From a virus (lineage: Duplodnaviria > Heunggongvirae > Uroviricota > Caudoviricetes), in the IMG/VR virus record IMGVR_UViG_2700989510_000001, positions 1 to 13,999 of that record: a DNA stretch of 13,999 nucleotides. One strand, written 5' to 3'. A program made the position numbers and the translations under genes. Below the pieces are notes generated by a model, which was given only the letters and a program-made list of their open reading frames with translations, had not been told where the DNA came from and did no database searches. Shown piece by piece: positions 1 to 9,461 of the stretch (position 1 is the stretch's first letter; every line of letters starts with the position of its first letter).

Positions 1-156
1 TTACTCCTCAGGTTCGTAAGCTGTGAAGACAGCGACCTCCGTCTGGCCGGTTCGGATTCGTACCTCGCAGAGGTCTTTCCTCGTTACCAGTGCCGTCACA
101 ATGACGGTTAAACAGATGACGATCAGGGCGATTAACATCGCCTTTTGCTGCTTCAT
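1..156 (-). CDS. hok: Hok/Gef family type I toxin, 51 aa
   Basis: Minus-strand translation MKQQKAMLIALIVICLTVIVTALVTRKDLCEVRIRTGQTEVAVFTAYEPEE: one N-terminal TM helix plus the conserved Hok motif (LTRK.LCE..R.G..EVA.F.AYE). AGGAG sits about 9 nt upstream of the ATG at 156; TAA stop at 1-3. The six-frame ORF extends in frame to 213 (70 aa), but the 51-aa form matches Hok family length. Confidence 0.8.
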   Translation of the reverse strand: MKQQKAMLIALIVICLTVIVTALVTRKDLCEVRIRTGQTEVAVFTAYEPEE

Positions 157-402
157 AGCCTGCTTCTCCTTGCCTTTCGGCACGTAAGAGGCTAACCTAC
201 GTTTGTGAAGCATAGATTGGGCCTCAGATTAATGTTAAACGTCTTGCAGGACGCGTAATGTTAACTGGGGCTTTTCTCTATCTGCCTTTTGGTGTTCATG
301 CCTGAGACAGATAGCCTCAAGCACCCGCAGCAATTCTACTTAACTCTCGCTTTACCGCAAACCGTTTTTACCCGATATGGGAATTCCCATATCGTAATGA
401 AT

Positions 403-6287: not shown

Positions 6288-6511
6288 GAATCATTTTTCC
6301 TTTCGTTCGAGGTGTTATCCTTCTTTTTGTAAAGTTCTGGGTTCAACGATAATTTTCCCTTGGAGTATGCAACTGCTTCAGCAGCCCTCCCCTTGGGAAC
6401 TATTTCGCCGGGACGCTTACGCCACATGTATATAGCTTCTCGGGTTACCCCATAAAAATCAGCGACTCTTTGGACAGAACCAAAAAACTGGACAAGTTCA
6501 TCAACTCGCAT
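6284..6511 (-). CDS. Cro-like HTH regulator (YdaS-like)
   Basis: 75-aa ORF with HTH segment VQRVADFYGVTREAIYMWRKR. GGGGGTG SD upstream of the ATG at 6509-6511. Divergent from the cI-like repressor across a 98-bp operator region. Confidence 0.75.
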   Translation of the reverse strand: MRVDELVQFFGSVQRVADFYGVTREAIYMWRKRPGEIVPKGRAAEAVAYSKGKLSLNPELYKKKDNTSNERKNDS

Positions 6512-6609
6512 TTCACCCCCTTAAAACTAAGTATTTTTAGATTAAAGGGTAATTTTTTTTAGGTCAATACAATCTAAAATAATTTATATTCAATTCGCGG
6601 GAGAAAATA
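6512..6609. promoter_or_regulatory. divergent immunity promoter/operator region (pR-like leftward, pRM-like rightward)
   Basis: 98-bp AT-rich intergenic region between divergent cro-like and cI-like genes. Inverted repeat ATTTTTAGATT (6533-6543) / AATCTAAAAT (6571-6580). Leftward candidate promoter TTGACC-17-TAATCT (minus strand; GGTCAA at 6562-6567 on plus). Rightward candidate -10 TATATT at 6585-6590. SD GGGAG before the cI ATG. Confidence 0.5.
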
Positions 6610-7254
6610 ATGGAAAGCCTTGGCATTAGGCTTAAGAAACTCAGAAAAGACAAAGGTCTGACCCAAGTTGAACTTGGCAAGCTTTCTGGCGTAACTGGGG
6701 TAACAATAGGATACTGGGAGAAAGATCTAAACGAACCAGGTAGCAAAGCTCTTAGTAAATTAGCCCTAGCACTAGGCACTACTGAGTCCTATCTCCTGTA
6801 TGGAGTATCATCTCCTGAATCATCCCTTGTGCAGAAAAATCCAGGTACCCAAATCCCATACCTTTCTTGGGGAGAAGCGATTTCTTTCCTAATATTAAAA
6901 GGAGAGAAAACTATGGGAACTGTCGACAGGATCACCACATTCTTTGATGTCAAGGAGGGAGATTTTGCCGTTTCAATGCCTGATGATACTATGCACAATC
7001 CATCAGGGTCCCCAAGCATTCCAGTTGGAGCCACAGTGATCATGAGGCCTGGCGAAAAATATAAAAATGGTAGCATCGTCGCAGTAATAGTCCCAGATCC
7101 ACTCACAAACGAACCATCCATGACTATAAAAAAATTAGTTATTGATGGAAAGCTCGTGTACTTAGCCCCCCTTAACCCACGCTATCAATCATCCTTACTT
7201 ACACCGGAATGTAACATCGTTGCTGTAGCAAAAGGTGTTCAGTTCAGCCTCTAG
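6610..7254 (+). CDS. cI: cI-like prophage repressor: N-terminal HTH_XRE + C-terminal S24 (LexA-like) peptidase domain
   Basis: 214-aa ORF. HTH LTQVELGKLSGVTGVTIGYWE. C-terminal block TIKKLVIDGKLVYLAPLNPRYQ parallels lambda cI [21 protein letters not shown] (catalytic Lys region). Ser-Met in AVSMPDD is the candidate nucleophile. Confidence 0.9.
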   Translation: MESLGIRLKKLRKDKGLTQVELGKLSGVTGVTIGYWEKDLNEPGSKALSKLALALGTTESYLLYGVSSPESSLVQKNPGTQIPYLSWGEAISFLILKGEKTMGTVDRITTFFDVKEGDFAVSMPDDTMHNPSGSPSIPVGATVIMRPGEKYKNGSIVAVIVPDPLTNEPSMTIKKLVIDGKLVYLAPLNPRYQSSLLTPECNIVAVAKGVQFSL

Positions 7255-7278
7255 CTCCCGCTTTGCCCTGTAATCAGA

Positions 7279-7303
7279 GGTCGGCTTTGTCGGCCTTTTA
7301 TCT
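7279..7303 (+). terminator. possible intrinsic terminator after cI
   Basis: GGTCGGC-TTT-GTCGGCC can pair as RNA only with two G-U wobbles, followed by TTTTATCTT. Weak. Confidence 0.3.
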
Positions 7304-7323
7304 TAAAAATATTTACATTCAAC

Positions 7324-7352
7324 TTGACGGCAAAACTAAATATTCTTATATT
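7324..7352 (+). promoter_or_regulatory. candidate sigma70 promoter for the downstream moron
   Basis: TTGACG (7324-7329), 17-nt spacer, TATATT (7347-7352): near-consensus -35/-10 with optimal spacing, between the cI stop and the next rightward genes. Confidence 0.5.
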
Positions 7353-7528
7353 CATTGCAACCCACCCCGCTTCACAGAATGCAGGGCAATACTTCGAGTT
7401 ACCAGGCAGTGGTCAGGGGTTAAGTAGCCAGCCCGAGGCGTAAGAACATGACGGCAGGGTTCAACTTTAATAACTATGCAGCAGGTTTTTGTTCCGCTAC
7501 CCCGGCGTTAAGGGGAAATGAGGTCAGC

Positions 7529-7681
7529 ATGGATACTATCGATCTTGGCAACAACGAATCTCTGGTATGTGGCGTGTTTCCCAATCAGGACGGCACGTTT
7601 ACCGCGATGACGTATACCAGAAGCAAAACGTTTAAAACTGAAGCTGGCGCGCGTCGCTGGTTAGCCAGAAACACTGACTGA
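7529..7681 (+). CDS. small hypothetical protein (50 aa; 77 aa if started at 7448)
   Basis: ORF track gives 7448..7681. The ATG at 7529 has GAGG 5 nt upstream; the 7448 ATG has a poorer SD. Sequence ...GVFPNQDGTFTAMTYTRSKTFKTEAGARRWLARNTD. Stop TGA overlaps the downstream ORF. Confidence 0.5.
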   Translation: MDTIDLGNNESLVCGVFPNQDGTFTAMTYTRSKTFKTEAGARRWLARNTD

Positions 7682-7692
7682 TGAGGTTGACG

Positions 7693-8331
7693 ATGGAATT
7701 TAAAGATTTACCTCCTTCAATCCAGGAGATTGCAGCACACACACTTCGTCATCGTCTGAACGAACTTGAATTGGAATCGGTAACGAAAAAAGACACTGAT
7801 AATATGGCTCGTAATGTGCGCGATGCGTTTACCGGATTGTATTTCTGTGCGTCTATAAATAAACACGACTCAGAGAGTGTGGCAAATAAAATTGCAGAAA
7901 CGACAGCGCAAAACATCAATACGAAACCAACGGAAGAAGAAATTGATCAGTTTGCTCATGATGCTGGTTTAAAAAACAAGAAAGAAAAATCGCCATATGC
8001 GGGGAACATGTTTGTTTATGACAATCTCATCAGAATTCGTGGCGAAATTCCGGCGGAATACCTGGCAAGAGTCCATCAGGCATTGCTTAAAAATTTGGAA
8101 ACAGAATTATTTGATGGCAACACTAACGGTTTCTTCATGGTATCAGGCCTTGAGAAAGACTGGGATGCAGAAAAACGCTGGAATGTTGCTACATGGTTAT
8201 TCAGTAACAGAGCCGCTGCACTGGAAGCTTCGGCATGTATTTGCGGCCTGTTCTTAACAGACCACAAATATAATCTGGATGTGTACAGTTATATTTACGC
8301 TGAACACGGTCCACTCTGGATTGACTGGTAA
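7693..8331 (+). CDS. hypothetical protein, 212 aa, AT-rich moron gene in the rexAB-equivalent position
   Basis: ORF track starts at 7681 (ATG overlapping the upstream TGA); the ATG at 7693 has GAGG 6 nt upstream. AT-rich relative to flanks. No TM segment and no recognisable family. Co-oriented with and downstream of cI. Confidence 0.75.
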   Translation: MEFKDLPPSIQEIAAHTLRHRLNELELESVTKKDTDNMARNVRDAFTGLYFCASINKHDSESVANKIAETTAQNINTKPTEEEIDQFAHDAGLKNKKEKSPYAGNMFVYDNLIRIRGEIPAEYLARVHQALLKNLETELFDGNTNGFFMVSGLEKDWDAEKRWNVATWLFSNRAAALEASACICGLFLTDHKYNLDVYSYIYAEHGPLWIDW

Positions 8332-8541
8332 TTATAAGGAAACACCAGCAGGGCCGCGGCGACCAACAGAACGATTAAAATCAATAATGCCATTATAAAG
8401 GACATTATTTAATTTATCGTCGAATGCTGATTCTGTGAGCCTCAACTCTGAATGAGTTTTTAATAACCCTGATTGCCTGAGTTGATTTACCAGGCATTCA
8501 ATCTGTTTTTCAATAAGCGGATTTCTTTTTTTGTTTGGCAT
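8332..8541 (-). CDS. hypothetical small protein, 69 aa
   Basis: ORF track gives 8332..8553; the second ATG (8539-8541, MPNKKRNPLIEKQ...) is preceded by GGAGGATAAA. Its stop codon directly abuts the stop of the convergent 212-aa gene (TAATTA at 8329-8334). Confidence 0.5.
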   Translation of the reverse strand: MPNKKRNPLIEKQIECLVNQLRQSGLLKTHSELRLTESAFDDKLNNVLYNGIIDFNRSVGRRGPAGVSL

Positions 8542-8940
8542 TTTATCCTCCATTGAGGTTCTGGGTTAAAAATGGAGACCAACACGCTGTCACGTGTGGT
8601 CGTGCGCCGGACACGGATAAGAATCCGGTACTGACAGTTTACTGAAAGGATATTTCCCTGAAAAGTCAGGGCATAACGCGAAAGCGTACGGCGAAGCTCT
8701 TTCCCTTAGAAGGCTTGTCGTTAGATTTCTTCGAACGTGCGCTTCCGGTTGTGGCAATCCGCGAAATGGCGCGGCGGTAAGTATGGCGGGGTTATTCCTT
8801 CCCCATTGAGGACACCGGGTTGTCAGGTTGACCATACGCTTAAGTGACAACCCCGCTGCAACGCCCTCTGTTATCAATTTTCTGGTGACGTTTGGCGGTA
8901 TCAGTTTTACTCCGTGGCTGCTCTGCCGCCCTTTTTAAAG

Positions 8941-9088
8941 TGAATTTTGTGATGCGGTGAATGCGGCTCAGCGCACGCGGAACAGTTAAAACCAAAAACA
9001 GTGTTATGGGTGGATTCTCTGTATCCGGCGTTAATTGTTAACTGGTTAACGTCACCTGGAGGCACCAGGCACCGCATCACAAAATTCA
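8941..9088. repeat. perfect 19-bp inverted repeat pair flanking a 110-bp segment
   Basis: Left arm TGAATTTTGTGATGCGGTG (8941-8959); right arm CACCGCATCACAAAATTCA (9070-9088), its exact reverse complement. The match does not extend on either side. The right arm ends 17 nt before the ATG at 9106. Confidence 0.6.
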
Positions 9089-9105
9089 TTGTTGAGGACG
9101 CGATA

Positions 9106-9294
9106 ATGGAAACGTTATTACCAAACGTTAATACGTCTGAAGGTTGTTTTGATATTGGTGTTCTGCTCAGTAACCGGGAGTTTACTGAAGATGCCATTAA
9201 TATGAGGAAATATGAGCCTTATCTGCTCAATGATAATTCCATACTTTCCCGAATTGCTCTTCTTGAACTTGGTATTTTCGGAGAACGTCAATGA
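9106..9294 (+). CDS. small hypothetical protein, 62 aa (kil position of early-left operon)
   Basis: ATG at 9106 with GAGGA SD (ORF track frame begins at 9001). Stop overlaps the next ATG (ATGA at 9291-9294). First gene after the ORF-poor region and upstream of the exonuclease. Confidence 0.5.
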   Translation: METLLPNVNTSEGCFDIGVLLSNREFTEDAINMRKYEPYLLNDNSILSRIALLELGIFGERQ

Positions 9295-9461
9295 CTTCAG
9301 CATTTGCACTGATGATGACGGTTTTTCTTATAACGGGTGAATCACAGAATGTGATTACCGGAATTTATGCCAGTAAAGAATCCTGCCTCCAGGCAAGAGA
9401 CGAGCAAAAAATTTCTGGTGAATGCCTCCCGGTAAAAAAAAGTATCGCTGTACCTGAATAA
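9291..9461 (+). CDS. small hypothetical protein, 56 aa, hydrophobic N-terminus
   Basis: Hand translation MTSAFALMMTVFLITGESQNVITGIYASKESCLQARDEQKISGECLPVKKSIAVPE, TAA at 9459-9461. Translationally coupled (ATGA) to the upstream ORF. Below the ORF-track size cutoff. Confidence 0.5.
   Translation: MTSAFALMMTVFLITGESQNVITGIYASKESCLQARDEQKISGECLPVKKSIAVPE

Follow-up and report, generated by a model that had tools for sequence, protein, structure and literature searches.

Does a long noncoding interval of an early-left operon control transcription as DNA, does it act as RNA, and is it new? Positions 8542-9105 of the window (the entire 13,999-nt stretch of phage DNA analyzed here) contain a perfect 19-nt inverted repeat, and the initial annotation proposed either an early-left control region or a structured RNA. 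The striking feature is genuine, yet it is already explained: it is a known dicF locus. On sequence comparison, 8542-9105 is very probably the long untranslated center of an early-left operon, of dicBF type, in a lambdoid prophage. We put the probability of the complete reading, a DicF locus together with its RNase III processing hairpins, at about 0.88. The conspicuous noncoding feature would then be a textbook DicF locus with processing signals, and no new explanation is needed for it.

Identity of the Locus

EHEC chromosomes that have an annotated dicB next to ompW matched the window at 99.9% identity; judged by sequence, the window is a PPompW-type lambdoid prophage of EHEC. The segment 8603-9106 aligned without large gaps with the ydfC-dicF-dicB spacer of the K-12 prophage Qin, with ∼97% identity past the junction and a mean column identity of 92% across the entire 630-column alignment. 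Homology with K-12 and other dicF loci begins only at ∼8603, and the left edge (8554-8600) is non-conserved. Among dicF loci, the noncoding modules are 97-99% conserved, as against 88-89% for the neighboring dicB.

Qin and the window have the same order of elements, namely repressor, promoter, DUF1391 (ydfA), long UTR, dicF, hairpin, dicB, DUF1482 (ydfD), exonuclease, and int. The hairpin of Qin is that of the window save for two C-to-U changes, each of which yields a G·U pair. The repressors differ, the window encoding a 214-aa HTH+S24 protein (LexA family, cleavable) and Qin the 135-aa DicA, and in place of ydfB and ydfC the window has a 212-aa ORF and an opposite-strand 69-aa gene. Unlike Qin, the window prophage lies at ompW; it has xis, int, and genes for replication and seems for the most part intact. 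Genes for cI-like and Cro-like proteins are found upstream of DicF in the window.

The first gene past the hairpin is dicB (9106-9294, plus strand; SD GAGG at 9094-9097), which codes for a cell-division inhibitor of 62 aa. Pfam family PF05358 matched it at full length (9106-9291, 125 bits), and the 99.9% identical RefSeq record likewise has dicB annotated. The dicB start is 175 nt downstream of DicF and 16 nt past the closing stem described below.

DicF and the Modules Upstream of It

DicF, an inhibitor of cell division when expressed in K-12, was among the first bacterial sRNAs described. The suspicion that the interval holds a structured noncoding RNA was well placed, because an Rfam search found the DicF gene, overlooked in the initial annotation, at 8879-8931 on the plus strand (53-nt form). 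The covariance model RF00039 matched 8880-8931 completely (model positions 1-52) with a score of 75 bits against a gathering threshold of 48 (E = 2e-15). The sequence is identical to K-12 dicF at 52 of 53 nt, the single change being A to G at nt 39. In a thermodynamic prediction with RNAduplex, the DicF/ftsZ duplex had an energy of −38.5 kcal/mol, with the same pairing and energy as K-12 DicF; nt 39 is unpaired in the predicted duplex, so the change leaves it unaltered. The intrinsic terminator of DicF (8894-8936, plus strand), assigned from the Rfam consensus structure and a terminator scan, consists of a stem (8894-8900/8924-8930) with an inner stem (8902-8905/8917-8920), followed by C and UUUUU at 8931-8936. 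The traits that mark a member of the DicF family are thus present: a 3′ stem-loop with a U tract, and a place in a dicB-type operon in the immunity-left region of a lambdoid prophage. A 9-nt complementarity between the 5′ seed of DicF (8884-8892) and 9048-9056 was rejected as being at about chance level in 900 nt.

The terminator is functional in K-12, where it gives rise to 53-nt DicF and to a transcript ending at dicF (PMC10448788, PMC5069750, PMC9438474). The 53-nt form arises by termination at this site, and RNase III produces a 72-nt DicF (PMC5069750, PMC9438474). A 190-nt species is also RNase III-dependent (PMC10448788); the same paper names a cleavage at “position 813/814” in a numbering of its own, which is not reconcilable with window coordinates. 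EHEC strains have several dicF copies, which affect virulence gene expression (PMC7873438).

Two leader hairpins (8606-8669, plus strand), seen in the RNAalifold consensus of 13 relatives, mark the start of the conserved dicF module. Hairpin 1 is GCCGGA/TCCGGT at 8606-8629 and hairpin 2 is CTGAC...GTCAG at 8631-8670. The CCGGA/TCCGG repeat noted previously is indeed present, but at 8607-8611/8624-8628 rather than near 8608-8632. The leader-hairpin segment is 91-99% conserved among dicF loci, and part of it (8570-8642) also stands alone in Stx phages. A consensus fold predicted a long imperfect hairpin next (8672-8753, plus strand), which pairs 8672-8696 with 8730-8753 and has a variable tip. 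RNase III is predicted to cut this hairpin, and the 190-nt precursor of DicF would then begin at ∼8742-8747; counted from the 3′ end of DicF, 190 nt reach back into the 3′ strand of the stem, which is why the cut is placed there.

Between this hairpin and DicF is a three-hairpin 5′ domain (8759-8853, plus strand) made up of Pa (8759-8774), Pb (8787-8805), and Pc (8817-8853), with a possible pseudoknot between 8781-8786 and 8832-8837 in the model. The domain is 97-99% conserved among dicF loci, although no Rfam family matched 8759-8853. At least 120 IMG/VR contigs share the loop motif of this domain, and the domain precedes many different seed-plus-terminator variants. Pb pairing is maintained with at least six different stem sequences, and Pc and the pseudoknot each show compensatory changes in P1/P7. 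For the Pc helix (8817-8825/8845-8853), four covarying pairs were found against 1.1 expected (5 of 500 shuffles), which is modest support. Run on the 8729-8868 alignment, RNAalifold put the pairing of the third hairpin in a shifted register. The P1/P7 changes are compatible with both Pc alternatives, and the changes in two further copies (L147 and L229) cleanly with neither; the pairing retained here is the perfect 9-bp helix 8817-8825/8845-8853. The initially suggested stem between GCGGGGTT and AACCCCGC (8786-8793 with 8849-8856) did not survive comparison: the first element begins at 8786, not 8785 (8786-8793 instead of 8785-8792), and the pairing is lost in homologs, which keep the local hairpins 8787-8791/8801-8805 and 8817-8825/8845-8853 instead. 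A global fold of 8595-8940 was discarded because it was weak (z = −2.3) and disrupted the DicF terminator.

The 19-nt Repeats Close a Covarying RNA Domain

The repeat TGAATTTTGTGATGCGGTG occupies 8941-8959, and 110 nt separate it from its exact reverse complement (9070-9088). The inverted repeat is as exact as first reported and far beyond chance: allowing up to three mismatches, the 19-mer has only these two sites in the window, while shuffled sequences had a mean of 0.01 matches and none of 200 reached two. In RNA the helix lengthens to 20-21 pairs (G8940·U9089 and A8939-U9090). A 20-bp stem (8940-8959/9070-9089) closes a branched domain of 150 nt (8940-9089, plus strand) with internal hairpins at 8963-8978, 9011-9037, and 9039-9053. 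The GTTAAC-TGG-TTAAC sequence forms the tip of the internal hairpin 9011-9020/9028-9037, which itself covaries. Fold prediction and covariance search, the checks suggested at the outset, both returned structure, with a minimum free energy for the domain of −66 kcal/mol (z = −4.9) and Rfam matches above threshold for RF00039 and below it for RF02076.

RNAalifold on 13 close relatives detected nearly no covariation because these are 98% identical, and distant copies were then gathered by motif search. Covariation of the closing domain was measured on 20 distinct homologs, with 500 shuffles and slid controls for comparison. Across the 20 homologs 98.3% of cells were paired, whereas slid controls paired just 33-43%. 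Compensatory changes on both sides were observed for nine pairs versus 2.1 ± 1.1 in shuffles, none of the 500 being as high. G·U cells numbered 94 and A·C cells 6 in the homologs, showing that the plus strand is the strand selected as RNA. An A·C mismatch in the stem results from one substitution in two relatives (L098 and L104). The 19-mers pair as RNA, on the plus strand. The proposal that they are arms of a long RNA hairpin in an early-left leader is thereby upheld, the leader being part of the dicBF operon transcript.

The stem provides 20 consecutive pairs, kept in homologs, and so has the ∼20 bp of near-uninterrupted double-stranded RNA characteristic of RNase III substrates. Cut positions in the window were computed from the K-12 RNA sizes. 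The 3′ end of a 72-nt DicF falls at 8950 (8879 + 71), which is nucleotide 10 of the left arm. By analogy with K-12, the 150-nt domain is likely to be the RNase III site for this 3′ end (∼8950), and in the model it is likely also to be the site for the 5′ end of dicB mRNA, predicted at ∼9081.

It had been recognized from the start that the 19-mer might prove to be a common genome-wide repeat unrelated to the prophage. The hairpin is common (85% of complete E. coli genomes have it, the median being two copies), but its neighbors in the loci examined are phage genes (dicB, kil, and tciA/terB). No annotation lies underneath the hairpin matches in 12 records sampled across the ranking.

Coding Potential and Early-left Control Signals

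The description of the interval as GC-rich and ORF-poor was accurate: GC content is 0.51-0.52 over 8550-9000 and 0.37-0.43 on either side, and the plus strand has no ORF of at least 40 aa in 8332-9001. The best candidate for a pL-type promoter in 6400-9400, a dicBp analogue, was found at 7324-7352 on the plus strand (TTGACG-17-TATATT, 10 of 12 matches), directly downstream of the HTH+S24 repressor gene (6610-7254) and ∼1.2 kb upstream of the interval. Operator-like repeats at 7300-7321 and 7333-7354 overlap this promoter and resemble the repeats of the cro-cI spacer (6523-6592). From its sequence, the genuine early-left control region appears to be 7300-7354, which combines the features of oL and pL, and its promoter presumably drives this dicBF copy. 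A sigma-70-like scan detected no plus-strand promoter-like site in 8542-9105. The promoter-like site at the left edge of the interval (8540-8569; TTAACC-18-TAAAAT, 9 of 12 matches) is on the minus strand and is that of the 69-aa gene (8332-8541). Because this opposite-strand gene lies between the promoter 7324-7352 and dicF, collision or antisense transcription could lower read-through from pL.

Three readings of the interval that differ in kind from a DicF locus can be weighed against these data. That it is a minus-strand protein gene has virtually no chance of being correct. ORFs of 95 or 96 aa do exist (8590-8877 and 8907-9197), and a “hypothetical protein” is annotated over homologous DNA in some phage records. 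However, the initial judgment that these ORFs are noncoding is borne out, as both lack Pfam matches, 1-nt indels or stop codons interrupt or truncate the frames in 6 and 5, respectively, of 13 close relatives, variation is concentrated at hairpin tips and not at third codon positions, and RefSeq calls no CDS in the interval in the 99.9% identical genome. It is scarcely more credible that the 19-mers are paired operators of the cI-like repressor, an oL supporting DNA looping around a pL within the interval, as was first suggested. The suggestion drew on the position of the repeats and on their being a perfect palindrome pair as DNA, but the operator-like repeats common to the cro-cI spacer and the best promoter are at 7300-7354, by the repressor gene, and the interval offers no plus-strand promoter. 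The 19-mer has no further copies in the window at up to three mismatches, the cro-cI spacer included, and therefore does not belong to the shared operator-like repeats. Moreover, the same hairpin is present in prophages with other repressors, such as DicA in Qin, and across the family its interior is conserved but its arms range in length from 4 to 28 pairs. Arm substitutions allow G·U pairing on just one of the strands (94 versus 6 cells), a signature of RNA and not of DNA binding.

A nutL- or put-type antitermination RNA allowing read-through of the DicF terminator into dicB, exonuclease, xis, and int is improbable as well. Such an element would suit an early-left operon that has genes beyond an intrinsic terminator and no evident N-like protein, and in the window as in P1/P7, the three-hairpin domain always has an intrinsic terminator directly after it. 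Against this, no boxA-like site was found in or near the interval (the window matches are just 750, 1301, and 2006, a chance frequency), there is no likeness to the curated antitermination RNAs of Rfam, and the terminator works in K-12. The 19-nt repeat cannot act on the DicF terminator because it lies downstream of it. The earlier placement of nutL in the interval fails for related reasons: such a site would consist of boxA and a boxB hairpin downstream of pL and be served by an N-type gene, but no boxA-like match lies in or near the interval, and neither DUF1391 nor the 212-aa protein, the plus-strand ORFs downstream of the promoter, gave a Pfam match to an N-type antiterminator.

Relationship of the 150-nt Domain to STnc100

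STnc100 (RF02076) is a prophage-associated enterobacterial sRNA with no function assigned in Rfam. The RF02076 model matched the 150-nt domain over model positions 1-206 with a score of 37.7 bits, below the gathering score of 47 (E = 5e-7), and the K-12, P1, P7, Shigella-phage, and Klebsiella-phage copies scored 33-43 bits, all sub-threshold. By sequence, the domain can be described as a sub-threshold relative of STnc100. Like STnc100, it is closed by a stem that ends in GGUG/CACC; GAAU comes next, followed by a first hairpin, a middle part that varies, and, adjoining the closing stem, a last hairpin (CCNGG-AGGCA-CCNGG); GGUGAAU and the 22-nt core TCACCNGGAGGCACCNGGCACC are common to both. It differs in its first hairpin (GCGGC.../...GC-CGC, as opposed to CCCCC/GGGGG) and in the closing stem, which is 20-28 bp in the dicF-type domain and mostly 6-9 bp in STnc100. 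In the wider family (82 distinct copies), most closing stems measure 6-10 bp, whereas copies directly after a DicF-like terminator have 21-28 pairs. The sole exception is L125, with 10 pairs by the two-interruption helix measure, yet 97% paired in the alignment. A long stem (20 bp or more) is found only in copies that follow a DicF-like terminator.

The full-length match to RF02076 and the shared 22-nt core and GGUGAAU motif raise the question of whether the 150-nt domain could be a trans-acting sRNA of the STnc100 family in its own right, expressed from a separate gene that has a promoter and terminator of its own. This is improbable, given a score of 37.7 against 47 and an unfavorable setting. 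The domain has an sRNA terminator on one side and a coding gene on the other; no plus-strand promoter-like site was found in 8936-9070 or ahead of the domain, and no terminator after it, dicB beginning 16 nt past the stem. Typical STnc100 copies, by contrast, have the 6-9-bp stem and are often followed by their own terminator hairpin.

In another possible role, 8940-9089 would be chiefly a cis-acting switch for the translation or stability of dicB, a toxic gene, with an extension of the helix hiding the SD in unprocessed RNA and RNase III freeing it. SD accessibility was computed for four loci, namely the window, K-12, a kil-linked copy (L010), and L052. In the full-length RNA of the window and K-12, the SD GAGG pairs with the C/U tract past the DicF terminator with a probability of 0.7-0.96, and after a simulated cut it is almost unpaired (≤0.03 for three of four nt). 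Sub-threshold STnc100-like domains are also located 16-40 nt upstream of division-inhibitor genes in unrelated phages, these genes being dicB, kil, and tciA/terB, inhibitors by annotation or homology. However, the kil-linked copy has no SD pairing and L052 has it only in part, the dicB AUG becomes paired after the simulated cut, and the result comes from four loci and hinges on the thermodynamic model and the assumed cut position. We consider such a switch doubtful as the chief function. A translational switch could operate in addition to the processing role.

Proposed Processing Pathway

For the DicF locus with RNase III processing hairpins, we propose the following sequence of events. For the RNA sizes and the need for RNase III and RNase E we draw on K-12 experiments, transferred on the basis of 97-98% identity, and the exact cut positions and the dicB mRNA 5′ end given for this copy are estimates by analogy. 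Transcription would start at the repressor-controlled promoter (7324-7352) and proceed rightward through the interval. RNase III would cut the hairpin 8672-8753, giving a precursor of ∼190 nt that comprises the three-hairpin domain 8759-8853 and DicF, and RNase E cleavage at ∼8878/8879 would produce the mature DicF 5′ end. The 3′ end could then be formed by either of two routes. RNA polymerase stopping at the terminator 8894-8936 would yield the 53-nt DicF. On read-through, the 19-nt repeats would form the 20-bp helix 8940-8959/9070-9089 that closes the 150-nt domain, and an RNase III cut in this helix would yield the 72-nt DicF with its 3′ end at ∼8950. With the usual 2-nt stagger, the same cleavage would release a separate dicB mRNA starting at ∼9081, 25 nt ahead of the dicB ATG. 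DicF (8879-8931) is a repressor of ftsZ and other mRNAs, acting through base pairing.

Intercistronic RNase III processing sites are found in phage early mRNAs, including T7 R0.3-R1.3 and the lambda N-leader and sib sites. As in these, the helix of the window is ∼20 bp, forms only in polycistronic read-through RNA, and lies between two functional units, such that host RNase III would split the transcript into RNAs whose ends derive from the hairpin. The sequences are unrelated, however, and the helix in the window closes a large, conserved, branched domain, not just a bulged hairpin of simple form, its cleavage being predicted.

Possible Portable Modules in the dicF UTR

The modular architecture is a modest residual novelty of a locus that is otherwise already known. 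Phages P1 and P7 have a three-hairpin domain homologous to 8759-8853 (79-82% identity) that is likewise followed by an intrinsic terminator. It is situated ∼50 nt downstream of the C1-controlled promoter Pban, with the rest of the ban operon beyond the terminator; in P1 (NC_005856) this leader of the ban operon is annotated as a “dicF-like region”. An STnc100-like domain occurs further on, just upstream of tciA/terB. Unlike the window, P1 has no DicF seed, no Rfam DicF match, and tRNA genes between the two modules, and its STnc100-like domain is closed by a stem of just 9 bp.

We tentatively suggest, at less than even odds, that the dicF UTR is assembled from portable, undescribed RNA modules, a three-hairpin scaffold and an STnc100-related leader. 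The pseudoknotted three-hairpin domain may be a constant scaffold placed before at least 16 “seed plus terminator” cassettes in lambdoid phages and P1/P7, in which case DicF would be one member of a variable-seed family of phage sRNAs. The STnc100-related domain may be a conserved leader directly upstream of division-inhibitor-type genes (dicB, kil, and tciA/terB), with the closing stem lengthened to an RNase III site specifically where separation from an upstream sRNA is needed. Either module could have a specific activity in the control of termination, RNase access, or translation. The comparison joins the dicF-dicB RNase III hairpin, the orphan family STnc100, and the P1 “dicF-like region”, which are separate in the searchable literature. 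Were the modular reading true, new phage sRNAs could be found via the constant flanks, and STnc100 would have a testable function.

Identity of the Locus

A scan of the whole window against Rfam at curated thresholds returned two matches, sok at 151-326 and DicF at 8880-8931 (+), the latter with 75 bits against a threshold of 48. The ORF starting at 9106 (+) matched DicB in Pfam over its full length (125 bits). The 1.1 kb of DNA around the 19-nt inverted repeat is 99.8-99.9% identical to O111:H8, O103:H2, and O145:H28 chromosomes, where the region is a prophage adjoining ompW, and phage records named "PPompW" contain the same DNA. The gene order in these chromosomes is Cro-like, LexA-family repressor, DUF1391, hypothetical, hypothetical (opposite strand), a stretch with no annotation, dicB, DUF1482, exonuclease, xis, and int. 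From about 8603 to 9106 the sequence aligns with the ydfC-dicF-dicB spacer of the Escherichia coli K-12 prophage Qin with just three gaps of 1-2 nt, and only 8554-8600 of the interval 8542-9105 is not common to K-12. The dicBF operon is described as carrying dicF within an extended untranslated region (PMC5069750). On the basis of the DicF and DicB matches, the near-identical ompW prophages, and the Qin alignment, the interval is, as judged by sequence comparison, this untranslated region. The Rfam/Infernal search proposed in the initial annotation thus bore out its suggestion of a structured non-coding RNA here. The ftsZ complementarity of DicF is predicted to be intact in this copy. The feature in the interval is not new: the description of DicF dates from 1989-1990, and multiple dicF copies are documented in EHEC (PMC7873438).

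Direct inspection of 8300-9400 confirmed the perfect inverted repeat, with the 19-mer TGAATTTTGTGATGCGGTG at 8941-8959 and, after a spacer of 110 nt, its exact reverse complement at 9070-9088. No further copy was found in the window at up to three mismatches, and dinucleotide shuffles averaged 0.01 matches to the 19-mer. The interval is GC-richer than its surroundings, as first observed (0.51-0.52 over 8550-9000 versus 0.37-0.43 on either flank). The sequence GCGGGGTT is present, although its correct position is 8786-8793, one base from that first assigned, and its proposed pairing with 8849-8856 is not kept by homologues.

The sok antitoxin RNA match (RF01794, 118.5 bits, threshold 59) is on the minus strand and overlaps the start of a 70-aa ORF at 1-213 (-); this arrangement, at the window's left end, resembles a hok/sok-type toxin-antitoxin locus. 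A 69-aa gene at 8332-8541 (-), which belongs to PHROG 4274 and has no Pfam match, sits between the pL-type promoter and dicF, inside the early-left operon, and takes the place of Qin ydfB/ydfC. The promoter scan placed a promoter-like site for this gene at 8569-8540 (-), in the part 8554-8600 not shared with K-12; transcription of the gene would meet the DicF precursor transcript head-on. The ORF after dicB (9291-9461 (+), 56 aa) encodes a DUF1482, ydfD-like lysis protein. This gene is recorded as "frameshifted" in a near-identical RefSeq record and so may be in decay, with dicF and dicB retained.

Position of the Early-left Control Region

The initial annotation had considered the interval as the site of pL/oL and nutL, with the 19-mers as paired operators. 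A scan for sigma-70-type promoters found no plus strand promoter-like site within 8542-9105; its top match in 6400-9400 was TTGACG-17-TATATT at 7324-7352 (+). This site corresponds to dicBp, which lies upstream of ydfA and is the sole promoter found for DicF in K-12 (PMC10448788). It is overlapped by repeats at 7300-7321 and 7333-7354 that resemble those of the cro-cI spacer at 6523-6592, and is preceded by a hairpin and T run at 7279-7298, read by eye and not listed by the automated scan, that looks like the terminator of the repressor gene. No boxA-like sequence was found near the interval. Beyond the promoter lie two plus strand ORFs, one for DUF1391 and one for a 212-aa protein that has no match in Pfam, and neither matched an N-type antiterminator. 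A position for pL/oL and nutL within the interval is therefore unsupported, and the absence of both boxA and N matches contradicts the nut site reading. The lack of a plus strand promoter-like site likewise contradicts a free-standing sRNA gene. A protein-coding function fares no better. There is no plus strand ORF of at least 40 aa between 8332 and 9001, and both minus-strand ORFs lack Pfam matches and are broken by single-base indels or stop codons in 6/13 and 5/13 close relatives, in agreement with the original view that no convincing ORF is present.

The 19-nt Repeat as an RNA Helix

Folded as RNA, 8935-9110 is predicted to form a 20-bp stem (8940-8959 with 9070-9089) enclosing three to four small hairpins, with an energy of -66 kcal/mol (z = -4.9). 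The K-12 copy has one C-to-T change per arm, each yielding a G·U pair in plus strand RNA. Distant copies were gathered via the core TCACCNGGAGGCACCNGGCACC from at least 120 IMG/VR contigs, plus phage records. When 20 distinct copies were aligned, 98.3% of cells were paired, a share that fell to 33-43% when the partners were slid by 1-3 columns. In nine pairs both sides had changed, compared with 2.1 ± 1.1 such pairs in shuffles (0/500 as high). The outer stem holds five of these, with examples GUGAAU/AUUCAC to GCGAAU/AUUCGC and GAUG/CAUC to GGUG/CACC. The pairs comprised 94 G·U cells versus 6 A·C cells, pointing to selection on the plus strand transcript and not on a DNA palindrome. This RNA signature and the cro-cI-like repeats at 7300-7354 contradict the operator reading. 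As judged by covariation, the repeat is an RNA helix on the plus strand, the long hairpin that had been proposed as one of its possible roles.

The hairpin was found in 4630/5426 complete E. coli genomes, and no annotated feature underlies it in 12 records sampled across the ranking, an omission worth correcting in annotation pipelines. Nine nucleotides of the DicF 5' seed region (GGTGACGTT, 8884-8892) are perfectly complementary to the conserved core of the hairpin domain (AACGTCACC, 9048-9056). Such pairing might hide the seed before the RNA is processed, but a match of nine nucleotides is close to the chance expectation for 900 nt.

Processing of the Transcript

For K-12, secondary sources citing Faubladier et al. 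1990 and a 2023 primary study (PMC10448788) report that the DicF 5' end is an RNase E product, that the 53-nt DicF is made by termination and a 72-nt form by RNase III (PMC5069750, PMC9438474), and that RNase III also makes the 5' end of a 190-nt species (PMC10448788). In this copy, 190 nt upstream of the DicF 3' end is 8742-8747, a position in the 3' half of a long stem predicted to pair 8672-8696 with 8730-8753. From the 5' end at 8879, 72 nt, the length of the RNase III-dependent form, leads to 8950, which is nucleotide ten of the left arm. RNase III double cuts usually have a 2-nt stagger, and a second cut would then leave dicB mRNA beginning at about 9081. We infer these exact cut positions by analogy with K-12. 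Just 4 nt separate the DicF terminator U tract from the left arm, so that only read-through RNA could form the helix.

The account of the interval with the best support is the biogenesis pathway published for DicF, transferred to this copy. The pL-type transcript would stop at the DicF terminator or read through, RNase III would cleave both long helices, RNase E would cleave at the DicF 5' end, and the released DicF would act on ftsZ and other mRNAs. An effect of the hairpin on dicB translation is possible. Computation for four loci gave a mixed outcome, with the dicB SD occluded in dicB-linked copies but the SD not occluded in the kil-linked copy. It is speculation that the three-hairpin domain upstream of DicF (8759-8853) is an antitermination element, a role that its position fits but nothing else supports.

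Relationship to STnc100

At relaxed thresholds 8929-9138 matched the whole STnc100 model (RF02076) with 37.7 bits (E = 5e-7), below the threshold of 47. Sub-threshold matches also occur just upstream of dicB in K-12, of kil in Shigella phage 75/02 Stx and phage vB_Apl-pPE4, of tciA/terB in P1/P7, and, in a Klebsiella phage, of an ORF that has no annotation. In a set of 82 distinct copies, anchored on GGUG...CACC, uninterrupted pairs of the closing helix averaged 8.6 versus 6.4 with shuffled partners (maximum 7.0 over 200 shuffles), and pairs 5-9 covary. Closing helices of at least 21 pairs were found only in copies after a DicF-like terminator, all but one of which had 21-28 pairs; the exception, copy L125, has 10 pairs by the two-interruption measure, yet is 97% paired in the 20-copy alignment. 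By these comparisons the perfect 19-mer is a lengthened version of the family-wide closing stem, which would make it a plausible RNase III substrate.

The STnc100-type core motif is present in three copies per contig in L012 and L067 and in two in L018, L022, L037, L058, L078, and L084, spaced by a few hundred bases to 3-4 kb. In the ban operon leader of P7 (L004), the STnc100-like domain is closely preceded by a tRNA-Sec-like match at 2304-2388 (RF01852, 46.6 bits versus a threshold of 47) that the record does not annotate.

The Upstream Three-hairpin Domain

The segment 8761-8875 is 97-99% conserved across dicF loci versus 88-89% for dicB, and also stands alone in other phages. In P1/P7 the C1-controlled Pban promoter lies ~50 nt upstream of it and an intrinsic terminator comes after it; in the P1 record the name "dicF-like region" is given to a stretch (68791-68892) that overlaps it. 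The predicted plus strand structure comprises hairpin Pa (8759-8774), which is supported, Pb (8787-8805), which stays paired across six or more different stem sequences, Pc (8817-8825 with 8845-8853), in which P1/P7 show a compensated pair, and a six-pair pseudoknot (GUAUGG 8781-8786 with CCAUAC 8832-8837) compensated in P1 (GCAUGG/CCAUGC). With sequences this similar, statistical support for the 5' domain structure is modest. The domain is not covered by any Rfam family. Its loop motif (8826-8848) was found in at least 120 IMG/VR contigs, followed by at least 16 different combinations of single-stranded stretch and terminator hairpin, the commonest being DicF. This suggests a variable-seed phage sRNA family behind one conserved three-hairpin domain. 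The searchable literature yielded neither a connection of the dicF-dicB hairpin with STnc100 nor the view that the 5' domain is a constant scaffold in front of variable seeds, and DicF is absent from a 2026 preprint on STnc100 relatives; as the key 1990 and 1994 papers lay outside that search, we do not claim either as new.

Examples of seed-plus-terminator variants are contigs L128 (1576-1690), L143, L151, L158, L199, and L147, in which a different 5' seed is joined to a DicF-like 3' half; in L021 the DicF seed is joined to a different terminator hairpin. Actinobacillus phage vB_Apl-pPE4 (L126, PP818812.1) has at 1600-1790 a tandem duplication of a DicF-like cassette (seed, terminator, and start of the hairpin arm). 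Its entire immunity region (DicA, YdaT, Kil, and exonuclease VIII) shares 82-87% identity with E. coli prophage DNA, an oddity given that the recorded host of this phage belongs to the Pasteurellaceae. The first leader hairpin region, 8570-8642, is another portable non-coding piece, occurring alone at 81-93% identity, away from dicF, in Stx phages such as phiP27, P13374, TL-2011c, and phi191.
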